DNA of 61,917 bases, filler included. It is 8 parts of 8 records of this genome, joined end to end, with 100 filler letters (N's around TTAATTAATTAA, not from the genome) between each part and the next. Parts side by side here need not be neighbours in the genome. Positions count along the whole stretch, not along the records: positions 55,896 to 61,917 come from SRR31156797_59850; 7 more parts are not named here. One strand, 5' to 3'. Shown here in pieces: positions 786 through 61,917 of this stretch; position 1 is the first letter of the stretch, and every line of letters starts with the position of its first letter. Under the pieces are notes generated by a model. It saw only the letters and a list, made by a program, of their open reading frames with translations, was not told where the DNA came from and did not search any database. The position numbers and the translations under genes were made by a program.

Positions 786-1502
786 TTATGCTCCTTGTGA
801 GATGGTTATGGTGCTACCGAACCGAATACCCCCCCCAAAGTTTAAGTCCAGGGTTCCGTCTACATTTGGCATTGGGGGTTGAATGGTGTACGTTGTGCTG
901 AAAAATGGCGCGATCCCAATATAAATGGGATTCGTTCGTTTTCTGTTATAAACGGCCCCGTCATAGATGATATGCAGGGGCTTTATGGTATCCATCCGGT
1001 CATCCACATGGGCCTGGAAATCCTCTATGGAAATCCCCCGGGAAGTCATGTCGTCAATGTTGACGTTCAACCGGCCCCGGGAAGTCATGTGGTAACCCGA
1101 AAAATCGGATATCTCATCTTCCGGATAAAATGCATCCCCGTAGGCATCCGTCTTTTTCGCCCACAAAGGCATCCAGGTCACTTCCAATCCCAAGAACTTA
1201 CGGGCGAAGGTGGAAACAATGATGAATTCCGTATCCTTATAAAGCAGTTCCAGCTTCCGCCATGCCACGGCAATAGCCAGGTCCTCAGCCTTTGGTATGG
1301 CCTGGAAGAAATCCCCTAATTCTCCGATCTCCCTTTGAAGATCCACGGTATCAGCCGTATAGATGGACTTTGCACGTTTCATACGGTCAAGATCCGGGTC
1401 AAAGTTCTCTTCCCAGAGCTCTTGAATCGCTTCCGCAAACTGTATCCACCGAGGGGTATCAGCCTTGACAGGCGAGAGCCTCTTTTTCAGCCAATCAATC
1501 AT
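786..1502 (-). CDS. Baseplate/tail protein, P1 gp16-like
   Basis: 238 aa. Motifs WxxxRLxxxK, KSI, ELGxFF, TSRG and PLHIxxDG match P1 gp16 as recalled. Lies directly after the BplA-like gene. Confidence 0.75.
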   Translation of the reverse strand: MIDWLKKRLSPVKADTPRWIQFAEAIQELWEENFDPDLDRMKRAKSIYTADTVDLQREIGELGDFFQAIPKAEDLAIAVAWRKLELLYKDTEFIIVSTFARKFLGLEVTWMPLWAKKTDAYGDAFYPEDEISDFSGYHMTSRGRLNVNIDDMTSRGISIEDFQAHVDDRMDTIKPLHIIYDGAVYNRKRTNPIYIGIAPFFSTTYTIQPPMPNVDGTLDLNFGGGIRFGSTITISQGA

Positions 1503-3062
1503 TTACACATACTCCAGGGAAATGGTTGTGGTAGCCATATTGATATGAACCATATCGTTTAAATCAGTTGGGGTTGTGTCACCGGTAATGGTGATATTGT
1601 AATAAGCGCCTGAGTCACCAAAATATCCGGTTTCGCTGATCAAATCGTAAAAGTCTTTCAGGAAGATGTCCGTCTTCCGGTTCCTGGAATCCTTCCCGTA
1701 ATTGTTCGTCAAAATATCAATTATGGTCTGTTCCACGGTCGCTAAAACCAGGGTCCTCGAAACCTTCCCGGTTATCGCCAGGGAAAAGGTAACAAAATTC
1801 GGATCCGTCCATTCGTATTTCCGATTCAGAAGGGGCACGCCTCTGAGCGCTTCAAGGCATCTGTCTTCCAGGGTTTCAAATAACGCCCAATTGGTATCGG
1901 CGCCGGTCGGTTCCGTGTCACCACTGGTATGCGCGGTCACGCAGACAAGGGCCGTTCCATCGGTGATCAGCACCGTGTCATCAACCGCGTAAGCCGTATC
2001 GGCCGTCCAGTCACCTTGGGAGTTGTTCTGTTCATAGGCGGATATGAAAATCTTGTTGATGAAATCCACGTTCGCGGATCCGGCCGCCTCTTCCGCCTCT
2101 TCCTCCCCCCATACTTTGCACCAAAGGATATTTGGGAACTGCCTTCTCAGGAAAAAACGATAGTCTTCCCGCCATACCAGCCGTTCATTGTAAATAGGCC
2201 AGTAATGCAGGTTCTTTCTGAGTTCTTCGCCTTCCTCGCCTGATACACCACCCGTAATGGAGTTGATTGACGAAATACTCAGCACAACCTGCTCTTCATT
2301 GGAATCCAGAAGATCCCCAATAACATGCAATTCCTGCCCTGCAGCAAGGAAGGTAGGCCCTTCGGTCAACCACATATCAATCTGAACAATTGCACCCGCC
2401 GGCAGCATGGCGCCAAAAATGCCATTCCCGAATCGAATGCCGGTTTGCCCCGTGTGGGAGTAGAATTCATCAAAGACCAAAGCGTCCGCGTCTACGTTCT
2501 GGAAAAGTCTGGAATATGTCATCCCCTGGAAACCGTCACCATCCTGTAGGTCAACCGTGACAGAAAAAGAATTCAGCTTTTTTGTCACATCAACATCAAA
2601 CAGGGTCTCGTAAAAGGCTTTCTCTTCCGTAATCGTGTGGGAAATGACATTTTCTTTGATCTGTGCAATTTCAAGCGTTCCGCTTCCGCCGGAGGCCAGT
2701 ACCAAAGGGGCCATGGCCGCGTAATGAAACTGGGATCCGGATTCAAAGGCTTGCCCTTGCGGAATCGAAATTTGATATGCCCCATTATTGATGACCTGGG
2801 CAATACCGCTTGAAGCAATCGGTTTCCGGGGAAGGTATTCCCGGTCTTCCGCGTGAGCCCGAATACTGGATTCATTCAAGGCGGTTGATAGGAAAAATTC
2901 CTGCATGGACCTTTCAACATCATACATGCCTTGCCGAAGCGCCCAGCTTTGGAAGATGGAAAGATGATCGACAAATTGCGACCCTTTCAAGGCCGTCCAA
3001 TCAGCCTTTCCTTCCAGGATTTCCTGAAACTTGGCAAGTGCCTCTTCTTTACTGATCATCAT
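1503..3062 (-). CDS. Baseplate wedge protein, P1 BplA-like, with a CBM5/12-like insertion
   Basis: 519 aa. GSQFV, FLSTAxxxSSI, GIRFGNGIFG, LVWxxDYxFFL, KVWGE and INKIFIS follow P1 BplA as recalled. Confidence 0.8.
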   Translation of the reverse strand: MMISKEEALAKFQEILEGKADWTALKGSQFVDHLSIFQSWALRQGMYDVERSMQEFFLSTALNESSIRAHAEDREYLPRKPIASSGIAQVINNGAYQISIPQGQAFESGSQFHYAAMAPLVLASGGSGTLEIAQIKENVISHTITEEKAFYETLFDVDVTKKLNSFSVTVDLQDGDGFQGMTYSRLFQNVDADALVFDEFYSHTGQTGIRFGNGIFGAMLPAGAIVQIDMWLTEGPTFLAAGQELHVIGDLLDSNEEQVVLSISSINSITGGVSGEEGEELRKNLHYWPIYNERLVWREDYRFFLRRQFPNILWCKVWGEEEAEEAAGSANVDFINKIFISAYEQNNSQGDWTADTAYAVDDTVLITDGTALVCVTAHTSGDTEPTGADTNWALFETLEDRCLEALRGVPLLNRKYEWTDPNFVTFSLAITGKVSRTLVLATVEQTIIDILTNNYGKDSRNRKTDIFLKDFYDLISETGYFGDSGAYYNITITGDTTPTDLNDMVHINMATTTISLEYV

Positions 3063-3406
3063 AAAAGTACCTCACCTGCGGATGTTCCGATCTGGTGATT
3101 GATAATCACCTTGCAACGGTAGATGTCTATGGGTTCCACTGCGACGCTTTGGAGGACGATATCCCGGATATCCACCGGTAATTTATTCAGGATGGCCAGT
3201 TTGATTTTAATCTCAAGAATCGCGTCCAAAGGGTCATGTTTGAACTGCCCTAAGTTGTGTCCCCATGATGGATGATCGGCTACGGACCCTTCCGGGGTTT
3301 CGAACCATTCGTTAATCCGGTCATCCATTGCCGGGCCGTCAAACAGATGTTCAATACCGGTATCGGGGTCAATGTTGATTAAATGATGTAGCTCTTCAAT
3401 ACCCAT
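3059..3406 (-). CDS. Baseplate gp25/GPW-like wedge initiator (P1 PmgA-like)
   Basis: 115 aa with WFETPEGSVADHPSWGHNL. Size and position between tape measure and baseplate fit; overlaps both neighbours. Confidence 0.75.
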   Translation of the reverse strand: MGIEELHHLINIDPDTGIEHLFDGPAMDDRINEWFETPEGSVADHPSWGHNLGQFKHDPLDAILEIKIKLAILNKLPVDIRDIVLQSVAVEPIDIYRCKVIINHQIGTSAGEVLL

Positions 3407-5466
3407 CAGATCCTGTCATATGCCATGAGCGTTAACATGGAGTCCTCGAAATCCGCCTTGAGGTTGCTTTTTGCCGCGGTCGGTTGCTGGTCAGGGCTTA
3501 CGGATGTAGATGGTGCTTTCTGGTTTTTTTCAAGCGCCCGGATCAGTCGGTTCAGTTTGGTATTATCTACTTTTTCAGGTGCCCTTCCGGGTTTTGCCGT
3601 TTCGGGTTGTGTCCTCCGGTCTTTTATCCGGTCAACTTTCGGTAGGGGTTCCTTATGGATTTTTGTAACGGGAGCCCCGGGGGATTTTTGAGACGCAATG
3701 GGTTGCGGGGCAACCGCGGCCACCGCAACCTGTGCCTTTGCCTCATCCTGCCCGGTCAACCATTTGAAGATGGATTTTACACTTTCGGTAACGGTCGCAA
3801 TCGGTTCTGAAATAGCCTGTTGAACCGCATCTTTTTCACCATCCTTTTCATCCGTAAGGCCTAAAGCGCCGCCAATCCATGACCCGGCCCCATGAATGCC
3901 TTTGGCGATGTCGGCTGTATCCGTGTCTATGCCAAACATGCTTAAAAGCCCGGTTCCAAGGCCGCCCATGTCAAGCACATTCGCCAGTGATGAGGATGCT
4001 TTTTGCCCGGTTGTAGCCTCTTGCCCTTCCTTCAGGTCAAAGGCCCGGGCCTGCATGTCTTTATCGTTCCATCCCTGGAAAGCGTCATAGCCCGCCATGC
4101 CCACGGCCGCCAGGGGCCCTAAAGCCCGCAACCCGAACCCGGCGCCCTTCATCCCCAGCTTGGCAGCACCTTTTAAGCCGACCTTGGATGCTGTTTGGGT
4201 CGCCGGTTTGGCCGCGGCCGGCACCGCTTTTGCCGTTGCCATGGTGGAAGAAACGGCTTTTTCTGTCACCATGTCGGTAACAGGGGAATCTTCCCCTCCC
4301 AAAAGACCGCTCAGGAGCCCGCCGCCGATCCCGAGGCCGCCAATAAGACCGGCAATCTTCCCTATCTTTCCACGTCCGCCCGATTTGGAGGTGGGTAATG
4401 ATGTCCCGGCTTTAGGCGTTTTAATGGTCCCCATGGCACCCTTACGCCGTTTGCGTTCAACCATTTCGCCCGGGCGGGCTTTTTTATCTTTTGTGGGTTT
4501 GGTGGTAGTCTGATCCGGTTTCTGGTTGATGTTTCGTACCGCATCCAGGGTCGTCTTTTGGTCCTTTTGAATTTGGGTAATGTTTTTGGAATTCTGTCGC
4601 CGGATGCCGTCTCTTTGAATGCGCGGTTTCCCCCTTGATACATTCGCTTTCCGGGCTTTCTTGGCTTTCCGGTCCTTTACACTACGGAAAGCATCTCGCC
4701 CACGGCGCAACATTCCCAGCTTTCCGCCCATGCTGATCCCCTTTACAGCGGCAATCAATTCCTTATGGCGCGAATCCTCTTCTCGGTCGGAATCTTTCAG
4801 GGATTCAACCGTCTGTATCCCAAGATCAGACAATTTGAGGGCAACCTGTTTTTGTTCCTCAATGTTCGCCGCGTTTTTCCGGTCGCGCACCCTGGTTTTT
4901 GCATCCGGTTTCGTGGCGGATTTAGCGCCTTTGGTGGCGATATAATGGCCTTTCGCATCCCGCAGCCGGCCTTTTGCATCCCTTTTGGCGCCGGCGGGGA
5001 TTTTCTCCTTATCGCCTCTCCCTTTCAGCATGCCCTTGACGTTTTTCAGCTTTCCAAAATCCGTGTTGTCTTTAACTTCTTTGACTTCCTTGACAACATC
5101 CCACAAGGGGCCGCCCACGGCCGTGCCCACGATATCGGTAAGATCCTGATCCTGAAGTGCATTGGCGGCAACACCAACGCCCGCGGACCCAACATTAACC
5201 ATGGCATCCTTGACACCGCCAAGGAGTTTCCGGTCTTTAACTCGCTCAGTTTCAGCATGACGGGCGTCCAGTGCTTTCTGACTGGCTGTCTGTGCCTTTT
5301 CCTGTTTTTTGACAGGCTGTTTCGGTTCAGCCTTTTGGGTGGGGGTTACTTTGCTTGTCTGTGCTTTCCCTGGGGCTTTCGCTTCTGTTTTCGGGGCCTG
5401 AATTCGCCTTACTGTGGGCTGATCTGTTTTGACGAATACTTCCGCCCTGGGTTCAGGGGAGCGGCC
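3406..5466 (-). CDS. Tape-measure-like protein (P1 Sit-like), 5'-truncated
   Basis: The frame of ORF 3406..5202 stays open up to the contig end at 5466. Contains the blocks GTAVGGPLW and GQEATTGQKASSSLANVLDMGG. Gly/Ala/Lys-rich. Confidence 0.7.
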   Translation of the reverse strand, partial: GRSPEPRAEVFVKTDQPTVRRIQAPKTEAKAPGKAQTSKVTPTQKAEPKQPVKKQEKAQTASQKALDARHAETERVKDRKLLGGVKDAMVNVGSAGVGVAANALQDQDLTDIVGTAVGGPLWDVVKEVKEVKDNTDFGKLKNVKGMLKGRGDKEKIPAGAKRDAKGRLRDAKGHYIATKGAKSATKPDAKTRVRDRKNAANIEEQKQVALKLSDLGIQTVESLKDSDREEDSRHKELIAAVKGISMGGKLGMLRRGRDAFRSVKDRKAKKARKANVSRGKPRIQRDGIRRQNSKNITQIQKDQKTTLDAVRNINQKPDQTTTKPTKDKKARPGEMVERKRRKGAMGTIKTPKAGTSLPTSKSGGRGKIGKIAGLIGGLGIGGGLLSGLLGGEDSPVTDMVTEKAVSSTMATAKAVPAAAKPATQTASKVGLKGAAKLGMKGAGFGLRALGPLAAVGMAGYDAFQGWNDKDMQARAFDLKEGQEATTGQKASSSLANVLDMGGLGTGLLSMFGIDTDTADIAKGIHGAGSWIGGALGLTDEKDGEKDAVQQAISEPIATVTESVKSIFKWLTGQDEAKAQVAVAAVAPQPIASQKSPGAPVTKIHKEPLPKVDRIKDRRTQPETAKPGRAPEKVDNTKLNRLIRALEKNQKAPSTSVSPDQQPTAAKSNLKADFEDSMLTLMAYDRI

Positions 5467-5467
5467 C

Positions 5468-5567
5468 NNNNNNNNNNNNNNNNNNNNNNNNNNNNNNNNN
5501 NNNNNNNNNNNTTAATTAATTAANNNNNNNNNNNNNNNNNNNNNNNNNNNNNNNNNNNNNNNNNNNN
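5468..5567. other. Artificial contig spacer
   Basis: N run, TTAATTAATTAA (stops in all six frames), N run; 100 nt. Confidence 0.99.
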
Positions 5568-8084: not shown

Positions 8085-9119
8085 ATGCGTTCACGCCGGT
8101 TTCTGTATGCCCTTTTTGCCCTGATTTTGGCGGCTCCGGCCGCCTGGGCCGGACCGATATCCCTGATCGACAGCAACGACCGGACGGTGATCTTGCCCGG
8201 TCCGGCCAAACGGGTGGTTTCGTTGATGATGGAAACGACCACCGTGATGTTGACGATGGGGATGGCGGACCGCCTGGTGGGTGTCGATAAAAGGTCCGCC
8301 GAGGATCTGGTCAACCGCATGGTCCGGTTCGACGAGAAACCCGTCCCGGCGGTCGGCGAGACCAAGGAACCGAATGTCGAACTCATCGTCTCGCTTCAGC
8401 CCGACCTGATCCTGACCTGGGGCGGGTACGGAACGGAATTGGCCGATTCCATTCAGGAACGCAGCGGCATTCCGGTCCTGTGTCTCCATACGCTGACGCG
8501 TTTCGACGGCCTGCGGGCCAACTATCGCCTGACCGCCGAAGCCCTGGGTATTCCGGAGGCGGCCGACGCACCGCTTGCCTACATGGACAGCGTCATCGGG
8601 CGCGTCACGACCGTTACCGACACGATTCCCATGGCCGAACGGCCGCGCGTGCATCTGTTGTTCTGGAGCTTCTGGAACGGGGTATCCCGCATTCCGATCT
8701 ATTACGATCCGGTCAAGGCGGCCGGCGGCATCAATATCGCCGGCGGGCAGACCGCCAATGTTTACGGCTATTCGGTGAAGGTGCCGGTCGAACAGGTGAT
8801 TGTCTGGAATCCCGATATCATCCTGATTCACGGGACACCGAAGTCTTCCAAGGTCAAGACCGAGCAGATCCTGCATGACCCGCGGATGGCCGACGTCAAC
8901 GCGGTTCTCAAGGGGCAGGTGCATTATACGCTGGGTATGCAAAGCGGTTGGCACATGCCGCGCAACCTGACCGAGATGCTGTACATGGCCAAGCGATTCC
9001 ACCCCGACAGGTTCGCGGATCTCGATCCGCAGGCCGAGGGGAATGCCATTTACGAACGGCTTTACGGCAAGCCGGGTTTGTGGACTGCGCGGGGTCGGGA
9101 ACTTGGTTTCATTGACTGA
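8085..9119 (+). CDS. Iron-siderophore/cobalamin-type ABC transporter substrate-binding protein
   Basis: Signal peptide, PAKRVVSL, PNVELIVSLQPDLIL, WNPDIIL, VNAVLKGQVH; GGAGG RBS. Confidence 0.92.
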   Translation: MRSRRFLYALFALILAAPAAWAGPISLIDSNDRTVILPGPAKRVVSLMMETTTVMLTMGMADRLVGVDKRSAEDLVNRMVRFDEKPVPAVGETKEPNVELIVSLQPDLILTWGGYGTELADSIQERSGIPVLCLHTLTRFDGLRANYRLTAEALGIPEAADAPLAYMDSVIGRVTTVTDTIPMAERPRVHLLFWSFWNGVSRIPIYYDPVKAAGGINIAGGQTANVYGYSVKVPVEQVIVWNPDIILIHGTPKSSKVKTEQILHDPRMADVNAVLKGQVHYTLGMQSGWHMPRNLTEMLYMAKRFHPDRFADLDPQAEGNAIYERLYGKPGLWTARGRELGFID

Positions 9120-10170
9120 TACCGCCGTCGCCCGTTTGAACGGGGCGAGGGCCGGAGCATTTGGCGAAGCGGCGATCCTTTTGGTGCTTGCCGCCACGAC
9201 CGTCGTGCTCGGTCTCTGGGCGGCGACCATCGGTCCCGCCAACATCGGATTTGCCGAAGCCACGCGTACGGTTTCGGGCTGGCTTGTGCCCGGTTCGTTC
9301 GACGTTCCGAAAATGACCCACACGGTGATCGTAAACATTCGCCTGCCACGCATTCTGATGGCGGACCTTGCCGGGTTCGGGCTGGGCATGTCGGGTTTCG
9401 CCATGCAGGCGGTGCTGCGCAATCCCCTGGCCAGCCCCTACACCCTGGGTATATCGGCGGCAGCCGGTTTCGGCGCGTCCTTGGCCATCGTGCTCGGGGT
9501 CGGCATCCTGTCTTCGCAGTACATGATTGTCGGCAACGCGTTCTTCTTCGCGCTGGTGGCATCGTGTTTGGTGCTGATGCTGGCGATGCGGGACAACTCC
9601 AACACGGAAACGGTGATCCTGACCGGTGTCGCCATGATGTTCCTGTTTTCGGCGGGGATCACGTTGCTGCAGTATATCGGCGACCCCTACGCCGTACAGT
9701 CGGTCGTATTCTGGCTTATCGGCGATGTCGGCCGGGCATCCTGGCCGAAGCTGGGCCTGCTGGCGGGCGTCATCGGGATTGCCGCGCCGTATCTGGTCTA
9801 CAAGGGATGGGATATCGGCATCATGCGTTTCGGCGACGACACCGCCGCCAGTCTGGGGGTGCCGGTCGGTTGGACGCGCGTCGGCGTGATGGCTGCGTGC
9901 TCGTTGACGACGGCCTGTCTGGTTTCCTTCGTCGGGACCATCGCGTTTGTCGGCCTGGTGGCACCCCACATCGTCAAGCTGGCCGGGCAGGCGAACGAAC
10001 GTTTCGGCCTGATCGCCTCCGGTCTGATCGGAGCCATTCTGCTCGCTGCCGCCGATATGGTGGCGTTGACCGCCCTCAAACCCAACGTGTTGCCGATCGG
10101 CGTGGTCACGGCGTTTTTGGGGGTCCCGTTGTTTCTGGTGCTGATTCGCCGCGGGAGACGCAGGACATGA
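9103..10170 (+). CDS. FecCD/BtuC-family ABC permease
   Basis: IRLPRI, QAVLRNPLASPYTLG, FVGLVAPH, LPIGVVTAFLGVPLF. TTG start inferred from overlap with the upstream gene. Confidence 0.93.
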   Translation: MVSLTDTAVARLNGARAGAFGEAAILLVLAATTVVLGLWAATIGPANIGFAEATRTVSGWLVPGSFDVPKMTHTVIVNIRLPRILMADLAGFGLGMSGFAMQAVLRNPLASPYTLGISAAAGFGASLAIVLGVGILSSQYMIVGNAFFFALVASCLVLMLAMRDNSNTETVILTGVAMMFLFSAGITLLQYIGDPYAVQSVVFWLIGDVGRASWPKLGLLAGVIGIAAPYLVYKGWDIGIMRFGDDTAASLGVPVGWTRVGVMAACSLTTACLVSFVGTIAFVGLVAPHIVKLAGQANERFGLIASGLIGAILLAAADMVALTALKPNVLPIGVVTAFLGVPLFLVLIRRGRRRT

Positions 10171-12269: not shown

Positions 12270-12369
12270 NNNNNNNNNNNNNNNNNNNNNNNNNNNNNNN
12301 NNNNNNNNNNNNNTTAATTAATTAANNNNNNNNNNNNNNNNNNNNNNNNNNNNNNNNNNNNNNNNNNNN
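12270..12369. other. Artificial contig spacer
   Basis: N run, TTAATTAATTAA, N run. Confidence 0.99.
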
Positions 12370-12852
12370 CTCTATGAAGACGGAACGCCCGTAAGCGCTG
12401 CCGAATCCAGGGATAAATTCAACAATACCGAGTTCGGCGCCATGGGAGGCGCCAGCGTGGCCAAGAACGTGCACGCCATGCTCTGCGATGCCTTCGAAGG
12501 GGCGCGGGGTGAGTTTCAGATTACCGAATCCCTTATCATGAGCGCCTTCGACCGGGCGGAGCGGGAGGATCTGGACCGGGCCTACGCCTGCGGCGAAGAG
12601 GCCGTTCGACTGGCCGCCGAAGGGCAGAGCGGCGTCATGGTGAGCATCCTGCGCCATCAGGACGGCTTTAGCCTCGGCACAGCCCCGCTGGAGGATGTGG
12701 CCGTCCGGGCCAAGGCTATGCCCCGGGAGTATCTCAATGACGCGGGTAACGATGTAACCCCGGCCTTTATGGACTATATCAGGCCCCTTCTCTCCCCTTT
12801 GCCCGAGTTCGTCGAACTGGAGAACAAATTCTTTAAGGCCCCTCAGTCCTGA
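12370..12852 (+). CDS. 6-phosphofructokinase (PfkA family, possibly PPi-dependent), C-terminal part
   Basis: Frame open from the contig start; DLDRAYACGEEAV, GQSGVMVSI, PLEDVA, GNDVTPAFMDYIRPL. Confidence 0.85.
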   Translation, partial: LYEDGTPVSAAESRDKFNNTEFGAMGGASVAKNVHAMLCDAFEGARGEFQITESLIMSAFDRAEREDLDRAYACGEEAVRLAAEGQSGVMVSILRHQDGFSLGTAPLEDVAVRAKAMPREYLNDAGNDVTPAFMDYIRPLLSPLPEFVELENKFFKAPQS

Positions 12853-12907
12853 ACTGAAGATCCGTCGGGACGGTTTTCCTGTTCCGACGAGGTGGAAGGA
12901 GTATAAA

Positions 12908-13672
12908 ATGGAATCTTTTAAAAAGAATATTCTTGTGGTACAGGCTCATCCCGATGACGCTGAGGCCTGGTCCGGAGGAACTCTGAAGCTTCTCAGCGAT
13001 GCGGGGTATAAAATCTCCATCGTCACCATGACCGCAGGGGGAATGGGCGGTATGAGCGGCAGCGAGGAAGAGACCGTGGCGGTACGCAAGAAGGAGGCCG
13101 AAAAAGCGGCCGCCCTGATCGGCGCCGACTACTACTGTCTGGATCAGGGGGACGGCTTTCTCTTCGATGCCCCGGAGCTCCGTCTGAAGCTGGTCTCCCT
13201 GATGCGGCGCGTCGAGGCGGGGATCATCATTACCCATATGCAGAATGATTATCATCCCGATCACAGGGCCGCTTCGCTTATCTGCTTCGCGTCGGCGATC
13301 ATCTCTTCCCTGCCCAATGTGCCGGTGGAAGAGGCGCCTCTTGACGTGACCCCCCTGCTGTACTACAGCGCTCCCATGAGCATGTCCGGCCCCCTGGGCG
13401 AGCCTATCGCCGATCCCCATTTCTATGTGGACATAACGTCTCAGATAGATACGAAGCTGGAGATGCTGGGATGTCACGAGTCCCAGAAGATGCTGATGAA
13501 GCATATGCATAAGATAGACGATTTTTTCGGTGAGATGAGAAAATTCAGCGCCGAGCTGGGCGTCAGATCGGGATGCGGTTACGCCGAATGCTACTGGCAG
13601 CATCTGGGCGGAGGCTTCCAGAAGGAGCCGCTGCTTCAAGAGGTATTGAAGGACAATCTTATTGTGAAATAG
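12908..13672 (+). CDS. PIG-L/LmbE-family N-acetylhexosamine deacetylase
   Basis: AHPDDAE and DYHPDH metal motifs; KLEMLGCHESQ. Confidence 0.92.
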   Translation: MESFKKNILVVQAHPDDAEAWSGGTLKLLSDAGYKISIVTMTAGGMGGMSGSEEETVAVRKKEAEKAAALIGADYYCLDQGDGFLFDAPELRLKLVSLMRRVEAGIIITHMQNDYHPDHRAASLICFASAIISSLPNVPVEEAPLDVTPLLYYSAPMSMSGPLGEPIADPHFYVDITSQIDTKLEMLGCHESQKMLMKHMHKIDDFFGEMRKFSAELGVRSGCGYAECYWQHLGGGFQKEPLLQEVLKDNLIVK

Positions 13673-18621: not shown

Positions 18622-18721
18622 NNNNNNNNNNNNNNNNNNNNNNNNNNNNNNNNNNNNNNNNNNNNTTAATTAATTAANNNNNNNNNNNNNNNNNNNNNNN
18701 NNNNNNNNNNNNNNNNNNNNN
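18622..18721. other. Artificial contig spacer
   Basis: N run, TTAATTAATTAA, N run. Confidence 0.99.
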
Positions 18722-28823: not shown

Positions 28824-28923
28824 NNNNNNNNNNNNNNNNNNNNNNNNNNNNNNNNNNNNNNNNNNNNTTAATTAATTAANNNNNNNNNNNNNNNNNNNNN
28901 NNNNNNNNNNNNNNNNNNNNNNN
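28824..28923. other. Artificial contig spacer
   Basis: N run, TTAATTAATTAA, N run. Confidence 0.99.
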
Positions 28924-35175: not shown

Positions 35176-35275
35176 NNNNNNNNNNNNNNNNNNNNNNNNN
35201 NNNNNNNNNNNNNNNNNNNTTAATTAATTAANNNNNNNNNNNNNNNNNNNNNNNNNNNNNNNNNNNNNNNNNNNN
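35176..35275. other. Artificial contig spacer
   Basis: N run, TTAATTAATTAA, N run. Confidence 0.99.
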
Positions 35276-49797: not shown

Positions 49798-49897
49798 NNN
49801 NNNNNNNNNNNNNNNNNNNNNNNNNNNNNNNNNNNNNNNNNTTAATTAATTAANNNNNNNNNNNNNNNNNNNNNNNNNNNNNNNNNNNNNNNNNNNN
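49798..49897. other. Artificial contig spacer
   Basis: N run, TTAATTAATTAA, N run. Confidence 0.99.
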
Positions 49898-55795: not shown

Positions 55796-55895
55796 NNNNN
55801 NNNNNNNNNNNNNNNNNNNNNNNNNNNNNNNNNNNNNNNTTAATTAATTAANNNNNNNNNNNNNNNNNNNNNNNNNNNNNNNNNNNNNNNNNNNN
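55796..55895. other. Artificial contig spacer
   Basis: N run, TTAATTAATTAA, N run. Confidence 0.99.
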
Positions 55896-56056
55896 ATAAT
55901 AACCGTTAAAATTACTGGAAAAGTACCCGGTCCAGCAAAGCTCGTAACGCTGGTACTAAATGGTAATTTTGACGATGCAACAAGCATCCCTAATCCAAAT
56001 AGGAAAAACATTGATGCAACTATTAATTCCATAGTTATTTTCTTCAAAATTTTCAT
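55896..56056 (-). CDS. Tripartite tricarboxylate transporter TctB, N-terminal part
   Basis: TM helix followed by GPGTFP; downstream of the TctC gene. Confidence 0.8.
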
Positions 56057-56208
56057 AACATGAGATCGAGGGATGAACTCGACTCTCTCCTCCTGTTTAC
56101 ATAGCATGATTAAGTCTTTGTCCAAACGCCTTAACCTGCATATATCATGAATAGTCACTCCCGTACCACGTCGGAAGGAGCCCATAAAGAACTACAATCC
56201 GAAAGGAA

Positions 56209-56275
56209 GCGCTGTACCGAGTCATAATCTCTCTGAGCTGATTCAGATCAGAGAACAAATCTCCCGGTACAACGC
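56209..56275 (-). terminator. Long intercistronic hairpin after the TctC gene (terminator or mRNA stabiliser)
   Basis: Outer stem GCGCTGTACCG/CGGTACAACGC, inner stem TCTCTGAGCTGA/TCAGATCAGAGA; followed by TTCCTTT on the minus strand. Confidence 0.6.
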
Positions 56276-56317
56276 ATCCATTATTTTTTCAGAATTAATT
56301 CATCTCCCGGGGGTCTT

Positions 56318-57298
56318 TTATTTTCCCTGGATAGCCTGAATCATATCATGATACATTTCAAAATCCTTATGCCATTTTTCAGTGAAAGCAGTGGTTTCAG
56401 TGTAAACAACAGGACTGTTAATGTTCATCATTTGTTCAACAACTGTCGGATTTCCCAAAGCCTCTTTTATACCATCGTCTAACACATCAAGAATTTCTTT
56501 AGGTGTTCCTGCAGGAGCGGTAAAACCCCACCAGGGTCCGATAACGACATCATATCCCTGCTCCATAAAGGTCGGAACTTCGGGAAACCAGGAATCTCTT
56601 TCCGCTGATGCAATAGCAAGTACTTTCAGATTTCCATCTGCAATGTGATCCGATGTATCACCCGCATCTCCAAGACTGAAAACAATATGTCCACCAAGCA
56701 CGGCTGTAGTTGCTTCCACACCGCTGTCGAAGGGCACCATGTTGAAGAGTCCCGGTTCTCCCAAAGCAGCCTGGAACAATTCACAGGCAACATGTCCGGT
56801 TCCACCGGCTCCTGTGGATGAATATGTCATTTCACCATAGTTTTCTTTTGCAGCCGCAATTAAATCATCTAATGTATCAAATTCGGAATCTGCACTGACA
56901 AACAACATTGTCGGTAAGAAGGAGGTCTGACTAATCGGAGCAAATTCTTCATCCGTATATCCAACATCACCCTGGTTCGGGGTCAACATGGCAGGGCCCA
57001 GAGAAGAAAGGGCAATAGTATAGCCGTCTGGATCAGCGATAGATAATGCATTCATAGCAATAGCACCACCACCACCAGGTCTGTTTTCAACTACAAATGG
57101 AACTCCCAGAATATCACTGAGAGGTTCTGCAATGATTCTTGCCATTAAATCCGTACTTCCACCCGCCGGAAAAGGTACATAGACTGTGACATTACCAGCC
57201 GGATATTCTTCAGGAGTCGCTGCTTCCTGGGATCCGCCTGCAAAAACAAAGGAAAAACCAACCAACATCAATACTAATACTAAACTAATCTTTCTCAT
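56318..57298 (-). CDS. Tripartite tricarboxylate transporter substrate-binding protein (TctC/Bug)
   Basis: PFPAGGSTD, VENRPGGGG, DGYT, VPTFxEQG; spirochaete-style leader FAGGSQE. Confidence 0.93.
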   Translation of the reverse strand: MRKISLVLVLMLVGFSFVFAGGSQEAATPEEYPAGNVTVYVPFPAGGSTDLMARIIAEPLSDILGVPFVVENRPGGGGAIAMNALSIADPDGYTIALSSLGPAMLTPNQGDVGYTDEEFAPISQTSFLPTMLFVSADSEFDTLDDLIAAAKENYGEMTYSSTGAGGTGHVACELFQAALGEPGLFNMVPFDSGVEATTAVLGGHIVFSLGDAGDTSDHIADGNLKVLAIASAERDSWFPEVPTFMEQGYDVVIGPWWGFTAPAGTPKEILDVLDDGIKEALGNPTVVEQMMNINSPVVYTETTAFTEKWHKDFEMYHDMIQAIQGK

Positions 57299-57433
57299 AA
57301 AAAATCCTCCTGTTATTTCTCAAAAACTTTTATTCCGAAACATAAAACTGTTCAAGCCATGTTCAAGTATCGTGCATAGTTCCCTCCTAAACCCGCTATT
57401 GGGGTTCTATAACTCTTGTTTTTATTAAAGTGA

Positions 57434-58645
57434 TCATTTCAAACCGGCGTCGATAACCATTTGTGAAAACTCTTCATCAGTAATTAGACGCCGGAGTTCA
57501 ATACCGCGGCTTTTCACCTTCTGAAGCAGATCATCAACAATTTTTTCATCAGGTGCTTGAATCCCTCTTTTCTTGAGGGAATGGAGAATCGAGAGCTTTC
57601 CACTTTTTTTACCCAATACGACATTTCCTTCTCGACCCATAAGAGAGGGGGCAATGGCAAACATGGCAAGGGGGTTATTTTCCACAAGATCCACTCCAAT
57701 ACCGGATTCTCTTGTAAAGTTCGCCCTTCCGGTTATTGGCTTGTTCTGAGGAAGTCGGATACCCGTAATTTCTTCTGCCATCTCGGACAGTTCAACAAGA
57801 GATTCGATCTTGTAATTTTTATCGTAACCGTAAAGCAGCATCAGACCGACCGCGAGTTCTTCCATCGCAGCATTCCCGGTTCTTTCTCCAAGTCCGTTAA
57901 TACATGAATGAACGACTTCGGCGCCTGCTTCGATCGCTGCGAATTCACAGGCGACGGCTTGTCCAAAATCATTGTGCGTGTGGATCTCCACCGGCAGGTT
58001 AGTCAGTGTTTTAACTTTTTTCACAAGGTATTTGATAGACTCCGGCAGTGCACAACCCATTGTGTCTACAACACCAACGGAATCCGGCGGAGTGTTAGCC
58101 ATGAGTTTTGTCAACAAGTTCTCAAGATCCTCTTCAACCGCCCGGGTTGTGTCGTACGGAAAATAGACCGCATAAAGCCCCTTCTCTTTCGCGTATTCGA
58201 TAGCCGGCGCACTCTTCTCATAAACATTCTCCCAGGTCCATCCGAACTGATCCCGCAGCTTCGGTAGGCCGATGGGAACTTCAATAATGACCCCTGAAGC
58301 CCCGCACTCCACTGCAGCATCAATATCACCTTTCATAGCTCTGGCAAAAGTGAAAATCTGAGAGTCCAGGGATTTCGAAGTGATTTTTTTGATCGCATTA
58401 AAATCATCACTCGAAACGGCAGGCATTCCAGCTTCGATTCGTTCAATTCCGATTTCACTCATTTTAGAGGCCAGACGAACCTTATCTTCAGGTCTCATCA
58501 CAACACCCGGGGTCTGTTCGCCATCTCTGAGAGTGGCATCATGAATAACGACGTCTTGAGGAAGGGATAAATTACCTCTGACCTTGTCAATAAAATTGAA
58601 AGGGCTCACCCACCATTTTTCTTTCTTAAAATACTCTGTATTCAT
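57434..58645 (-). CDS. DRE-TIM metallolyase (homocitrate/isopropylmalate synthase-like) without a regulatory domain
   Basis: DATLRDGEQTPG, DTMG, HTHNDFG, GLGERTGN, LGKKSG; 403 aa. Confidence 0.88.
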   Translation of the reverse strand: MNTEYFKKEKWWVSPFNFIDKVRGNLSLPQDVVIHDATLRDGEQTPGVVMRPEDKVRLASKMSEIGIERIEAGMPAVSSDDFNAIKKITSKSLDSQIFTFARAMKGDIDAAVECGASGVIIEVPIGLPKLRDQFGWTWENVYEKSAPAIEYAKEKGLYAVYFPYDTTRAVEEDLENLLTKLMANTPPDSVGVVDTMGCALPESIKYLVKKVKTLTNLPVEIHTHNDFGQAVACEFAAIEAGAEVVHSCINGLGERTGNAAMEELAVGLMLLYGYDKNYKIESLVELSEMAEEITGIRLPQNKPITGRANFTRESGIGVDLVENNPLAMFAIAPSLMGREGNVVLGKKSGKLSILHSLKKRGIQAPDEKIVDDLLQKVKSRGIELRRLITDEEFSQMVIDAGLK

Positions 58646-58675
58646 TTCAACTCCTTTCGCTCACCCTATGTTCCA

Positions 58676-58688
58676 GTGGTCAGACCAC
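58676..58688. promoter_or_regulatory. FadR-family operator
   Basis: Palindrome GTGGT-CAG-ACCAC about 30 nt upstream of the DRE-TIM gene. Confidence 0.75.
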
Positions 58689-58703
58689 GGCAATGAAAAA
58701 AAA

Positions 58704-59408
58704 TTATGAAATACGTTTATAAACGGATTCAACATGCATTTGCATGTATTTTGCGGCATCCTCAGGATTTTTATCTTCGATTGCCTTCAAAATTTTCTTA
58801 TGAAACTCAATCGTCTCTTCCGATATCCCGAGGACAGGCACGGTTGAATCCCGGCTGATCTTCATTATGTCATGAATTGATATCAAAACACCTGATAAAA
58901 TAGAATTCCCGGCTGATTTTGCAATAGCTTCATGAAATGCAATCTCCAGATCAATCGCCAAATCCCGATTATGATAATTGTCCACTAACCGGGTGAAGAC
59001 GTCTTTCAAATTCGCCAGATCCTCTTCTGTTGCCTTTATCGCGGCCTGCCGGGTGCACTCGACCTCTATCATCTTCCGGAACTCGTACAGTTCCAGTAGC
59101 TTTTCTTTATTTGATGCAATCATAAATGCCAGCGGTCTCAACACCGACATGGAGAGTTTTGAATCATCCAATACCATTCCCTGCCCGTGCTCAACCTTGA
59201 CAATCCCCATCATATCAAGAACTCGTATAGCCTCTCGCAAGGAGGATCTACTAATTAAAAGAGCCTCAGAAAGTTCACGCTCAGCAGGAAGCTTATCTCC
59301 GGCTTTTAGATTCTGGTTTTTCACCAAATCATAAATGCGTTCAATAGCCTGTTCAACAACCGATGTCTTCTTGATTGGTTTTATGGTATATGTTTCATTT
59401 AAACCCAT
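58704..59408 (-). CDS. GntR/FadR-family transcriptional regulator
   Basis: GDKLPAERELS, SRSSLREA; FCD domain with FHEAIAxxxGN. Confidence 0.95.
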   Translation of the reverse strand: MGLNETYTIKPIKKTSVVEQAIERIYDLVKNQNLKAGDKLPAERELSEALLISRSSLREAIRVLDMMGIVKVEHGQGMVLDDSKLSMSVLRPLAFMIASNKEKLLELYEFRKMIEVECTRQAAIKATEEDLANLKDVFTRLVDNYHNRDLAIDLEIAFHEAIAKSAGNSILSGVLISIHDIMKISRDSTVPVLGISEETIEFHKKILKAIEDKNPEDAAKYMQMHVESVYKRIS

Positions 59409-59464
59409 AAGTTAGATTACCATGTAGATGTCTGGTTGTCAAACAAATAAATAATAATGTTCAG

Positions 59465-59477
59465 GTGGTCATACCAC
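59465..59477. promoter_or_regulatory. FadR-family operator (autoregulatory)
   Basis: GTGGT-CAT-ACCAC, 12/13 identical to the 58676 site; a weaker GTTGT-CAA-ACAAA lies near 59434. Confidence 0.75.
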
Positions 59478-59518
59478 TAATTCAATTACAAGATTCTGCT
59501 ACAAAAATTGCATATAGA

Positions 59519-59577
59519 TGTAACCATTGACATTACACCTGATATTCACTACATTTGACGTAACAATTATAGTTACA
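59519..59577 (+). promoter_or_regulatory. sigma70 promoter bracketed by two TGTAAC-N7-GTTACA (Rrf2-type) operators
   Basis: TGTAAC-CATTGAC-ATTACA 59519-59537 covers the -35 TTGACA (59527); -10 TACATT at 59550 (17-nt spacer); CGTAAC-AATTATA-GTTACA 59559-59577 covers the predicted +1. Confidence 0.78.
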
Positions 59578-59613
59578 TCATCGACAAATCCCAGACAAAT
59601 GGAGGGAAACTGA

Positions 59614-60435
59614 ATGAGAGATTACGCGGAAAAGATAAAACTGTTTACAGAATGGAACAGACCGGAGGTTTTTTCAAATCACCAGGACCTTCTTGAGGCC
59701 ATGGATGTAGTTCTCGGCTGGTTTCTGGCTGAACGAGGAGAGACGGTCACACTACCCCAAAAAGGAGATGAGAAGAGCCGCCTCCTGCAGGGCCTGATGA
59801 ATGTCCGTCCCCCCGCCCCGGTGGAGGCGGAAACAGGACGCCTGCTGGACAGAATACTCTGGACCGAAAGAGTGACAGCAGGAGTCGTCAAAGTTGATGA
59901 GATACCAGACCTCTGGCGGGGAGATATCACCCGGCTTGATGCAGATGCCATCGTCAACGCCGCCAACAGTGAACTCCTGGGCTGTTTTCACCCCCTCCAC
60001 AACTGCATCGACAATGCCATCCATTCGGCGGCGGGGCCGGAAATGCGGAATGACTGCCAGGAGATACGCCATATCACCGGAAAGACTGAAGGAACGGGTC
60101 TTGTCAAAATCACAAGGGCCTATAACCTTCCGTCAAAATATGTGCTGCATACCGTCGGCCCCATTGTCCAGGGGGTACTGACCGAGGACCACCGAAAACA
60201 GCTGGTCTCAAGCTACCGGGAGTGCCTTGAGGTGGCCGCACAAAAAGAGGATATCAAGTCCGTCGTCTTCTGCTGCATATCCACCGGTGTCTTCGGATAC
60301 CCCAAAGAGGAGGCGGCACGTACGGCGACTTTAACTGTAAGAGAGTGGGCGAAAAATCACCCAGGAAGATTCGACAGGGTAATCTTCAATGTGTTCACGG
60401 AGGAAGACAATGAAATCTACAAAAGATATCTTTAA
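59614..60435 (+). CDS. Zn-macrodomain protein-ADP-ribose hydrolase (SirTM-associated)
   Basis: WRGDIT, DAIVNAAN, Zn loop LLGCFHPLHNCIDNAIH, HTVGP, CCISTGVFGYP; N-terminal LMNVRPP helical bundle. Confidence 0.93.
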   Translation: MRDYAEKIKLFTEWNRPEVFSNHQDLLEAMDVVLGWFLAERGETVTLPQKGDEKSRLLQGLMNVRPPAPVEAETGRLLDRILWTERVTAGVVKVDEIPDLWRGDITRLDADAIVNAANSELLGCFHPLHNCIDNAIHSAAGPEMRNDCQEIRHITGKTEGTGLVKITRAYNLPSKYVLHTVGPIVQGVLTEDHRKQLVSSYRECLEVAAQKEDIKSVVFCCISTGVFGYPKEEAARTATLTVREWAKNHPGRFDRVIFNVFTEEDNEIYKRYL

Positions 60436-61240
60436 GCTGGTCAGAGAAAGTGAAAATATTCTAATCGGAGCCGGAGCGGGACTCTCGACTGCTGCGGGAC
60501 TGCTCTACACAGATCAGGATTTTTTTGACAATTACTTCCCAGGATACGGAAAGAGGTACGGTCTGACTTTTACCTACGGGGCCGCCTTCCATGAATTCCC
60601 GACCCAGGAAGAACACTACACCTACTGGGCCCGGCACATCAGAAATATGCGGCTGGAATTCCCTGTGGGCGACATCTACCGGAAACTTCTGGATCTGGTG
60701 AAGGAGAAGAACCACTTTATTATTACCACCAATGCCGACGGACAGTTTGAGAAGGCGGGTTTTGATCGGGAGAAGATGTTTACTCCCCAGGGAGACTACT
60801 CCTACTTCCAGTGCCCAACACCCTGCAGTGACGACCTCTACCCGAACACCGAATGGGTTTACAGGATGCTCGACGGTCTGACCGACGACGACTTTTCCGG
60901 GAAGACGGAAAACATTCCCCGCTGCCCCCGGTGTGGAGAGCTGCTGGTCCCCAACCTCCGGAAGGATGACCGGTTCGTGGAAAAGCCCTGGATGGAAAAG
61001 CAGGATGATTATGCCGGGTTCATCAACTCCCTGGAGGGTGAAGAACTCCTCCTCCTGGAACTCGGAGTCGGCTTCAACACCCCGGGTATCATCCGGTTCC
61101 CCTTCGAACAGATTGCCGCCGCCCGGGAGAAGACGACTTTAATCAGAGTGAACCCCGGAGACACGCGTCTGGCCGTCCCGGAAGCCAGGGAGAGGGCGAT
61201 ACTGGTCAAACAGGGAATAGAGGAGTTTTTTACCACTTAA
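60410..61240 (+). CDS. Class M sirtuin (SirTM), NAD-dependent mono-ADP-ribosyltransferase
   Basis: GAGAGLS, TTNADGQF, PQGDY (Gln in place of the catalytic His), CxxxC...CxxC, LELGVGFNTP; overlaps the macrodomain gene. Confidence 0.92.
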   Translation: MKSTKDIFKLVRESENILIGAGAGLSTAAGLLYTDQDFFDNYFPGYGKRYGLTFTYGAAFHEFPTQEEHYTYWARHIRNMRLEFPVGDIYRKLLDLVKEKNHFIITTNADGQFEKAGFDREKMFTPQGDYSYFQCPTPCSDDLYPNTEWVYRMLDGLTDDDFSGKTENIPRCPRCGELLVPNLRKDDRFVEKPWMEKQDDYAGFINSLEGEELLLLELGVGFNTPGIIRFPFEQIAAAREKTTLIRVNPGDTRLAVPEARERAILVKQGIEEFFTT

Positions 61241-61333
61241 AAAGTCTGGACAGGTCCCCGGCGTATAAACCGGATGCTGCAGGAAAGCTGTAGTTGCCGG
61301 AGGACCTGTTTTCCTTTACATTGGTAGTCAGCT

Positions 61334-61759
61334 ATGCAGATCGGTACCAAGTTCTCCGTATCCATTCACATCCTCTTAAGCGTCGAGGTCTTCAAGGTGA
61401 ACTACAAGGTCACCAGCGACTTCATCGCCTCCAGCGTGAACACCAACCCCGTGGTCATCAGGAAACTGATGAGCCAGCTGCGCAGGGCGGAATTGATAAC
61501 AGTCGCCAAGGGAACAGGGGGGATTTCACTGACAAGGCTTCCGGCCCAGATCACCCTCCTCGATATCTACCGGGCCGTCGAACCCCAGTCCGAGATGTTC
61601 CGGATCCATGAGAACAGCGCCCCCGGCTGTCCCGTGGGTGGAAAGATAGAACACCTCCTCCAGCCCCTCTTCTCAAGGCTTCAGACCTCCTTTCAAGAGG
61701 AGCTAAGTTCCACCTCTCTGGCGGATCTGCTGGATGATATGAAAGTCATGAACAATTAA
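61334..61759 (+). CDS. Rrf2-family regulator (HypR/SaiR/YwnA-like, single Cys, no Fe-S triad)
   Basis: KFSVSIHIL, IASSVNTNPVVIR, GTGG, ITLLDIY, HENxxPxCPVG. Confidence 0.93.
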   Translation: MQIGTKFSVSIHILLSVEVFKVNYKVTSDFIASSVNTNPVVIRKLMSQLRRAELITVAKGTGGISLTRLPAQITLLDIYRAVEPQSEMFRIHENSAPGCPVGGKIEHLLQPLFSRLQTSFQEELSSTSLADLLDDMKVMNN

Positions 61760-61917
61760 TCTCCTTGTACACCGCAGGAAAATGGAATCAAGTACACCAA
61801 CTATAAATCAGGAGGCCTTTCCATACACGGCCGGGTAAAGCTGATTGCGGAAGGCAGGCCTTTGATTAGGCGGTGTCCGAATCTGAAACCCTGAAGCTTA
61901 AGGCTTTTGTCGACAGC

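Follow-up and report, generated by a model that had tools for sequence, protein, structure and literature searches.

Bacterial genes for class M sirtuins (SirTMs) and macrodomains are described as paired either in independent operons or in extended operons that also carry gcvH-L and lplA2, with Spirochaetaceae among the hosts (Rack 2015, PMC4518038). GcvH-L is given as the sole known SirTM substrate, and the targets and physiological role of pairs outside the extended operon are stated to be unknown (PMC11490716). A locus at positions 59519 to 61759 of a 61,917-bp stretch of DNA (the window) therefore raises the question of how such a pair is controlled and what it modifies. It encodes a Zn-dependent macrodomain, a SirTM and, after them, a regulator of the Rrf2 family. 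We propose, as a probable explanation that still leaves considerable doubt, that this is a lone SirTM/Zn-macrodomain operon repressed by the adjacent Rrf2 protein, which would belong to the YwnA/SifR class, that it is derepressed by electrophiles or quinones, and that it acts on a target other than GcvH-L. The quinone-type inducer and the nature of the target are what we infer. The features on which the proposal draws are as follows.

59519 to 59537, unstranded: predicted operator O1, TGTAACCATTGACATTACA, a perfect TGTAA-N9-TTACA (0 mismatches) that contains the -35 hexamer TTGACA
59527 to 59555, plus strand: promoter-like site TTGACA-17-TACATT (10/12 consensus matches; a consensus match only)
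59545 to 59573, plus strand: second candidate promoter TTCACT-17-TATAGT (9/12 consensus matches; a consensus match only)
59559 to 59577, unstranded: predicted operator O2, CGTAACAATTATAGTTACA, with one mismatch, lying 3 nt past the -10 element TACATT and overlapping TATAGT
59614 to 60435, plus strand: Zn-dependent macrodomain, protein-ADP-ribose hydrolase by Pfam, NCBIfam and solved structures (273 amino acids)
60410 to 61240, plus strand: SirTM of the mono-ADP-ribosyltransferase class (276 amino acids; 283 from an alternative ATG at 60389)
61248 to 61311, plus strand: long hairpin followed by UUUUCCUUU, between the SirTM and Rrf2 genes (-37.7 kcal/mol, z -2.94)
61334 to 61759, plus strand: Rrf2 regulator, probably of the YwnA/SifR class, with a single Cys, C99 (141 amino acids; PF02082)

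Results

A predicted SirTM/Zn-macrodomain pair of the lone type

The plus-strand genes are ordered macrodomain, sirtuin and Rrf2, the first two overlapping. A sequence-only reading of the window had placed these three genes here and had pointed to a Cx4HxC loop, a PQGDY motif and a single-Cys Rrf2, all of which we recovered. The macrodomain protein matched Pfam Macro (E 3.5e-36) and the NCBIfam model NF003163, 'protein-ADP-ribose hydrolase' (299.7 bits, cutoff 272), and its nearest solved structures were Zn-macrodomains (8RSI, 9.8e-67; 5KIV, 4.1e-53; 8RSL, about 1e-53; 8RSM, 1.9e-48). Zn-macrodomains are defined by a Cx4HxC zinc loop, which takes the place of the glycine-rich catalytic loop, together with an NAAN motif, a dyad of Asp and His and a helical extension at the N terminus (PMC11490716). 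In the alignment with the solved relatives, the zinc loop of the present protein is C124-FHPL-H129-N-C131; NAAN lies at 115-118, the dyad is D133/H137, and the alignment to MorMacro begins at residue 28, leaving an N-terminal extension.

The sirtuin had no Pfam match, but it aligned with Streptococcus pyogenes SirTM (5A3A) across residues 6-265 (7.9e-33) and with a fungal macro-SirTM fusion (8RSN, 7.9e-32). Replacement of the catalytic HG by QG within the sirtuin fold is the signature of class M (PMC4518038). In the present protein QG stands where sirtuins have HG, within PQGDY, and Q134-G135 (283-residue numbering) is invariant in all 27 aligned homologues. N115 pairs with the catalytic Asn of SpySirTM, that of TTNAD (the equivalence to N118 is a reading of the chain numbering). 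In the Cys tetrad, which would bind Zn in the small domain, C142, C146 and C179 are invariant and C182 is nearly so. ATG 60410 is the likelier start, given GGAGGA at 60399-60404; from it the gene overlaps the macrodomain gene by 26 nt, or by 47 nt if translation begins at ATG 60389. These matches support a SirTM/Zn-macrodomain writer/eraser pair of the lone type, its enzyme activities being predicted; for the SirTM the activity predicted from its class is protein mono-ADP-ribosyl transfer, with no deacylation.

The macrodomain also bears on which kind of pair this is. MorMacro, which comes from a lone operon, matches it better (8RSI, 9.8e-67) than SauMacro (about 1e-53) or SpyMacro (about 1e-48) does. 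Arg175 and Arg176 of SauMacro, which form a basic surface patch of extended-operon Zn-macrodomains (PMC11490716), correspond in the alignment to Gln and Gly, with an inferred numbering offset of six residues. Thus the features of the extended-operon, GcvH-L-specific subgroup are lacking: the pair is flanked by a promoter and an Rrf2 gene, and the Arg-Arg patch is lost. The locus shares with the lone pairs named in Enterococcus faecalis and in Treponema pedis (Ariza 2024, PMC11490716), and with that of MorMacro, adjacent overlapping genes, a QG sirtuin, the Cx4HxC loop, NAAN and the N-terminal extension; gcvH-L and lplA do not adjoin the pair, and Spirochaetaceae had already been listed as hosts. 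A lone SirTM/Zn-macrodomain pair without substrate genes, spirochaetes included, is therefore already known: the sequence-only reading had stressed the missing substrate genes, which is not new, since PMC4518038 and PMC11490716 report lone pairs, among them those of Spirochaetaceae and T. pedis. What the locus adds is an Rrf2 regulator, probably of the YwnA/SifR class, after the pair and predicted twin TGTAA-N9-TTACA operators on its promoter.

Predicted twin operators on the promoter of the macrodomain gene

The 205-bp intergenic region separates the macrodomain gene from a divergent GntR/FCD gene and contains the promoter-like site and both operators directly upstream of the macrodomain gene, which agrees with the earlier proposal that the transcription unit begins there. 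The operator consensus, TGTAA-N9-TTACA, was taken from PMC9218516 and is a core common to SifR and HypR (PMC9218516; PMC6067689). With at most one mismatch allowed, it occurs twice in the 61,917-bp window, against 0.71 sites expected, and both sites lie in the macrodomain promoter region; in 20,000 dinucleotide-shuffled versions of the intergenic region, at least two sites turned up 13 times.

We searched the same pattern in 80 related SirTM loci (1,163,980 bp), which are among the matches listed from a scan of genome contigs; none exceeds 56% identity, and the loci of the four nearest relatives, P0001-P0004, are not among them. The scan patterns were derived from lone-type sequences, so that extended-operon loci are under-sampled among the 80. 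Operator sites occurred at a density of 0.077 per kb. Twins at most 100 bp apart were found three times in the 80 loci, each time directly upstream of a SirTM/macrodomain operon, and six of the eight perfect sites belong to these twins. The three loci are arranged as follows.

L060 (Lachnospiraceae): Rrf2 (YwnA-like), operators, PNPOx-like gene, SirTM, macrodomain
L065 (Eggerthellaceae): divergent Rrf2 (YwnA-like), operators, NmrA/YwnB-like gene, macrodomain, SirTM
L066: operators, macrodomain, SirTM, the contig ending 384 nt later; no Rrf2

In all four twin-operator promoters, including that of the present locus, TTGACA is embedded in O1 and O2 lies 3-13 nt past the -10 element. Three further loci, L058, L055 and L045, have operator candidates at two mismatches only.

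A single-Cys regulator, probably of the YwnA/SifR class

The Rrf2 protein matched PF02082 with an E of 1.2e-32 and has one Cys in its 141 residues, so it lacks the three-Cys set of Fe-S ligands. Its nearest solved structure is Bacillus subtilis YwnA (1XD7, 9.8e-33), followed by a Bacillus cereus homologue (1YLF), and its recognition helix is nearly identical to that of YwnA (NTNPVVIRKLMS in the locus, NTNPVVVRRMIS in YwnA). The Cys stands in the context H-x4-P-x-C-P-V-G, and none of the 17 aligned homologues, which span four phyla, departs from H92, C99 or P100; the Firmicute members of this alignment read HENPNPxC. YwnA and SifR fall in one Rrf2 cluster (cluster 6 of a sequence similarity network) with a single conserved Cys in HxxPNPxC at a helix N-cap (PMC9218516), and adduction of this Cys by quinones makes SifR leave its TGTAA-N9-TTACA operator (Zhang et al. 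2022, PMC9218516). With SifR of Streptococcus pneumoniae and YwnA of B. subtilis the protein thus shares the Rrf2 fold, a single conserved Cys in the same place with Pro-Val after it, and operators of this sequence covering a promoter; with YwnA it has a nearly identical recognition helix in common as well. It differs from them in the motif, HxxPNPxC there and HENSAPGC here. The class is described as mainly from Firmicutes, with few Actinobacteria (PMC9218516), whereas the present host is a spirochaete; and the SifR regulon holds catE, ywnB, yhdA and fre, whereas this protein would control an ADP-ribosylation pair.

HypR of Staphylococcus aureus and SaiR of Bacillus anthracis share the operator core and the equivalent of Cys99. 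HypR differs in a second Cys, Cys33, used for a disulfide switch, and its similarity to the Rrf2 protein is weak, although it is the best named NCBIfam match (38.5 bits, cutoff 180). The intersubunit disulfide of HypR requires both Cys33 and Cys99 (PMC6067689), and a single-Cys protein of the YwnA/SifR class, as this one appears to be by sequence, is unable to form it. The sequence-only reading had called the module redox-switched; because the regulator has a single Cys and the HypR disulfide needs two, 'electrophile- or quinone-sensed' fits better. Its idea of a thiol-sensing repressor fared well otherwise, in view of the operators and the single-Cys class. We regard the Rrf2 protein as a credible thiol-based repressor of the pair, because two operators of the SifR/HypR type lie on the macrodomain promoter and L060, L065 and L066 show this promoter design again.

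Between the SirTM and Rrf2 genes lies the long hairpin, as stably folded as which none of 200 shuffled sequences proved to be. It has a U-rich tail and ends 23 nt before the Rrf2 start, and it may act as a terminator or an attenuator or else serve RNA stability; at E <= 1 no Rfam family matched anywhere on the contig, the hairpin included. The three genes had been proposed to form one operon. They do lie in a row, the macrodomain and SirTM genes overlapping, but co-transcription of all three is not assured because of this strong terminator-like hairpin.

Regulators and other neighbours of related pairs

We counted the neighbours of SirTM in the 80 related loci with hidden Markov models that were built from clustered neighbouring open reading frames (ORFs) and run on all ORFs within 4 kb of SirTM; family names are the Pfam assignments of cluster representatives.

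Macrodomain: 60 of 80 loci
HxlR-family regulator: 39 of 80 loci, 38 of them with a macrodomain gene (L009-L072, for example L011:8955-9290)
PNPOx-like FMN protein: 20 of 80 loci
Protein of about 266 amino acids, without a name: 16 of 80 loci
NAD_binding_10/NmrA (YwnB-like): 11 of 80 loci
DUF1848: 7 of 80 loci
SnoaL-like: 6 of 80 loci
Cupin: 5 of 80 loci
Rrf2: 3 of 80 loci (L045, L060, L065)

The count of Rrf2 linkage across loci on which the earlier reading had staked its proposal thus went against it: the linkage is not broadly conserved, and HxlR is the usual regulator, often directly upstream of the macrodomain-SirTM pair and far commoner than Rrf2 (39 against 3 loci). Of the 60 pairs examined, 41 have one or the other within 4 kb. 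All 32 aligned HxlR members carry an N-terminal Cys, the residue by which DUF24 regulators of the YodB/HypR type sense; these proteins resemble the redox factors RrpA and RrpB, scoring below the cutoff. Our literature search found no paper joining SirTM and HxlR, and for SirTM with Rrf2 it returned only an unrelated S. aureus proteomics study. The main text of the SifR paper (PMC9218516; supplementary tables were outside the search) does not mention sirtuins or ADP-ribosylation, and the passages on lone pairs in PMC11490716 and PMC4518038, supplementary tables aside, name no regulator of them. In the literature searched, the regulatory wiring of a lone pair by an Rrf2 protein and twin operators was not found.

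The SirTM tree comprised 75 of the 80 loci besides the protein of the locus and five homologues from the database; the other five loci were left off, their SirTM ORF being shorter than 230 amino acids or the matched region giving no SirTM profile match. The SirTM of the locus groups with P0001-P0004 (support 100). A different clade (support 96) unites L060, L065 and L066 with the HxlR-linked L055 and with L058, which has neither HxlR nor Rrf2, and L045 is placed elsewhere. Because the locus, the clade of L060, L065 and L066, and L045 sit apart, the association of SirTM with Rrf2 or the operators appears at at least three places on the tree. Eight loci, L073-L080, make up a sirtuin clade of their own, without macrodomain genes, and do not count as SirTM proper.

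P0001-P0004 are the four best SirTM matches (64-71% identity) and lie on contigs of 5,015,559, 11,413, 317,619 and 4,012,482 bp. Homologues of the Rrf2 protein (70-73% in the alignment of Rrf2 homologues) and of the macrodomain (56-57%) lie on contigs of those same four sizes, and Brucepastera (3,239,032 bp) shows the same pattern. This fits, without proving adjacency, a conserved macrodomain/SirTM/Rrf2 triplet in the nearest relatives, in one case within 11.4 kb.

Several other neighbours are worth recording. The protein of about 266 amino acids (L016:8256-9056 and 15 further loci) is encoded beside HxlR, just upstream of the macrodomain-SirTM pair. It had no Pfam or NCBIfam match; as a lead only, a protein-atlas search placed it at 0.94-0.95 with clusters of the metallo-beta-lactamase fold. 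The protein could act alongside the pair as a partner or else be its target. A pyridine-nucleotide disulfide oxidoreductase gene resembling MerA and members of the HypR regulon lies directly 3' of SirTM-macrodomain in L058 (11645-13033), and in L055 the pair has, about 1 kb away, a gene for a DarT1-associated NADAR antitoxin (12686-13459). A Pfam scan of flanking ORFs of the related loci also gave ADH_zinc in L006 and L022, Pyr_redox_2 in L058, NmrA in L055 and MarR in L027; GCV_H and lipoate-ligase families were absent from the matches listed (up to the best five families per protein) for 150 of the 174 unlabelled flanking ORFs.

SirTM homologues with 44-49% identity to that of the locus were also found in five termite-gut-type spirochaete records (L001, L003, L004, L008 and L015). 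In these loci the macrodomain gene is absent and the neighbours are LacI, PfkB and GH32 sugar-utilisation genes; in three of the five a divergent HTH_3 regulator stands beside SirTM. Judged by these neighbourhoods, they look like orphan writers without a nearby eraser.

The contig and the window

The window consists of eight contigs joined end to end by seven spacers of the form N44-TTAATTAATTAA-N44 (at 5468-5567, 12270-12369, 18622-18721, 28824-28923, 35176-35275, 49798-49897 and 55796-55895). The features of the contig that carries the locus, beyond those given above, are these.

55896 to 61917, unstranded: the contig itself, 6,022 bp; N runs at 55796-55839 and 55852-55895 flank the TTAATTAATTAA of the spacer before it
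On the contig, minus strand: a truncated small ORF
56318 to 57298, minus strand: TctC-type receptor
57434 to 58645, minus strand: HMGL-like synthase
58704 to 59408, minus strand: GntR/FCD regulator, divergent from the macrodomain gene

Upstream of the macrodomain promoter the contig extends over 3.7 kb, and the earlier remark on genes missing upstream reaches no further than this. As had been remarked before, it ends 158 nt past the Rrf2 stop codon, and those bases are open in no frame. The earlier suggestion of a spirochaete-like host fits the nearest named homologues of all three proteins, which belong to Spirochaetota (Oceanispirochaeta crateris, Brucepastera, Breznakiella, Treponema). Among the matches listed, no database homologue of the macrodomain, SirTM or Rrf2 protein exceeds 74% identity; therefore the host appears to be without a close relative in the protein database. 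G+C is about 44% on this contig and ranges from about 0.44 to 0.62 across the pieces of the window, and because of this spread the pieces may come from more than one organism. The Pfam matches listed for the 58 ORFs of the window that were scanned (for some of them, up to the best five families per protein) include neither GCV_H nor the lipoate-ligase family. On other pieces, at 786-5202 and 8091-9422, both on the minus strand, long ORFs of 238, 519, 115, 598 and 443 amino acids had no Pfam match at E <= 1e-5.

Discussion

A working scheme for the locus can be put together from these results. A dimer of the Rrf2 protein with free Cys99 would bind O1, over the -35 hexamer, and O2, in the start region, and so keep the macrodomain promoter shut, as the operator matches suggest. 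By analogy with SifR, an electrophile, most likely of the quinone type, would modify Cys99 and cause the repressor to leave the DNA. The overlapping macrodomain and SirTM genes would then be transcribed together, and the Rrf2 protein might be produced only through read-through of the attenuating hairpin at 61248-61311. SirTM, judged by its enzyme class, would move ADP-ribose from NAD+ onto a protein other than GcvH-L, and the Zn-macrodomain would take it off again. A target other than GcvH-L is suggested because the macrodomain is of the lone type, because lone Zn-macrodomains fail on GcvH-L in vitro according to PMC11490716, and because Arg175 and Arg176 are lost. Another lipoyl protein, the Rrf2 protein itself or nucleic acid had been put forward in the sequence-only reading as possible targets.

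A number of observations weigh against this scheme, whose basis is sequence inference throughout. The class motif HxxPNPxC is only partly kept in the Rrf2 protein, which reads H92-ENSAPG-C99, with S-A where the motif has P-N; it retains the His, the Cys and, of the two Pro residues, the second. The terminator-like hairpin with its U-rich tail could end the operon ahead of Rrf2, and a search for a promoter of Rrf2's own in the gap between them found none, the gap having neither room nor consensus for one. The Rrf2 gene is linked to SirTM in just 3 of the 80 related loci; L066 has twin operators yet no Rrf2 within the locus, and L045 has an Rrf2 gene and no good operator, its best sites carrying two mismatches. 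The intergenic region also serves the divergent GntR/FCD gene, which could make use of sites in it. In the relatives P0001-P0004, matching contig sizes speak of co-residence, not of adjacency, and four further Rrf2 homologues with 69-72% identity (P0123, P0126, P0127 and P0128, on contigs of 9,612, 632, 37,684 and 6,814 bp) have contig sizes that match none of those of the 120 SirTM matches listed. Finally, the absence of gcvH-L and lplA noted in the sequence-only reading, although none appeared in the Pfam matches listed nearby, covers the 6-kb contig and not the genome, and such a gene may exist elsewhere in it.

Other explanations have to be set against the same evidence. The regulatory link could be right and the signal be oxidative or disulfide stress (HOCl, diamide or peroxide), as for HypR and SaiR, instead of quinones or other electrophiles. 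HypR has the same operator core and the conserved Cys, YwnA responds to diamide as well (PMC6067689), the weak best named NCBIfam match is HypR, and SirTM systems have been tied to oxidative stress in print (PMC11490716; PMC4518038). We nevertheless think it rather unlikely: the HypR switch depends on Cys33 together with Cys99, of which the Rrf2 protein has only the latter, the protein is far more similar to YwnA, a cluster-6 member with SifR, than to HypR, and the neighbours in related loci (NmrA/YwnB-like, PNPOx-like, cupin and SnoaL) resemble the quinone regulon of SifR, that is catE, ywnB, yhdA and fre (PMC9218516). The link itself could be spurious, the Rrf2 gene being a chance neighbour that heads a unit beyond the contig end, for example one with a ywnB-type reductase, while the pair is controlled by the GntR/FCD protein or another Rrf2 paralogue. 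The strong hairpin before Rrf2, the low linkage count, the operators of L066 without a local Rrf2 and the classical pairing of ywnA with ywnB (PMC9218516; PMC6067689) are all in keeping with this. It has to contend with the fact that the only two operator matches of the window sit on the macrodomain promoter, that L060 and L065 combine the same twin operators with an adjacent Rrf2 gene, that homologues of all three proteins are co-resident on contigs in four to five relatives, and that the gap after the hairpin offers no place for a promoter; a GntR homologue, moreover, was found in none of the 80 loci. On this evidence a chance neighbour is unlikely.

The enzymes could instead belong to a system of the S. 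aureus and S. pyogenes type (gcvH-L, macro, sirTM and lplA2, plus OYE and LLM oxidoreductases), with the substrate genes off the short contig, SirTM modifying a lipoylated GcvH-type carrier and the macrodomain reversing this. Only 6 kb are contiguous with the locus, no other SirTM substrate than GcvH-L is on record in PMC11490716, and the enzyme families and all catalytic motifs are common to both sets; an association with oxidoreductase genes and stress response is shared too, although these are OYE and LLM in the extended operon and PNPOx-like, NmrA-like and similar proteins in the related lone loci. Such a system is distinctly unlikely here. In the extended operon gcvH-L and lplA directly flank the pair (PMC11490716), whereas the flanks here are the operator promoter and Rrf2, and no GcvH-L or LplA2 gene lies nearby; the Pfam matches listed for the 150 related-locus ORFs and the 58 window ORFs held neither family. 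The macrodomain, moreover, is nearer to MorMacro and has lost the basic patch, and Zn-macrodomains of pairs or fusions could not demodify GcvH-L in vitro (PMC11490716). SIR2 domains and macrodomain antidotes are also known from defence and toxin-antitoxin systems. An NAD-consuming pair of this kind, with a SIR2 toxin and a macrodomain antidote comparable to DarT/DarG or SIR2 defence systems, would suit the overlapping genes and the NADAR gene near the pair in L055. It is very improbable, given that the macrodomain, SirTM and Rrf2 proteins matched no PADLOC family at E <= 0.01, that the sirtuin matches a protein-modifying SirTM structure over its full length, and that metabolic or redox genes, together with stress regulators, make up the surroundings in place of defence islands.

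We therefore keep to an electrophile-sensed lone operon as the likeliest explanation of this locus. A wider statement, that lone SirTM/Zn-macrodomain pairs across phyla are outputs of thiol-based electrophile sensors, mostly HxlR proteins and, in at least three places, Rrf2 proteins of the YwnA/SifR type, is tentative, and we think it possible but on the whole doubtful. The 'lone' pairs are perhaps not really alone, with a regulator within 4 kb in 41 of 60 and often genes for small flavin or NAD(P)H oxidoreductases. A repressor defined by sequence, with recognisable operators, offers a testable inducer and a genetic handle on the targets of lone pairs, and, if the proposal is true, it names an inducing condition under which these targets can be trapped. 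The monothiol class of SifR and YwnA would then reach into spirochaetes and take in a regulated function of a new kind. Reversible ADP-ribosylation would be a branch of the quinone and electrophile stress response, directed at a redox or thiol protein that is not GcvH-L, and ADP-ribose might cap a reactive residue transiently, to be freed later by the Zn-macrodomain.

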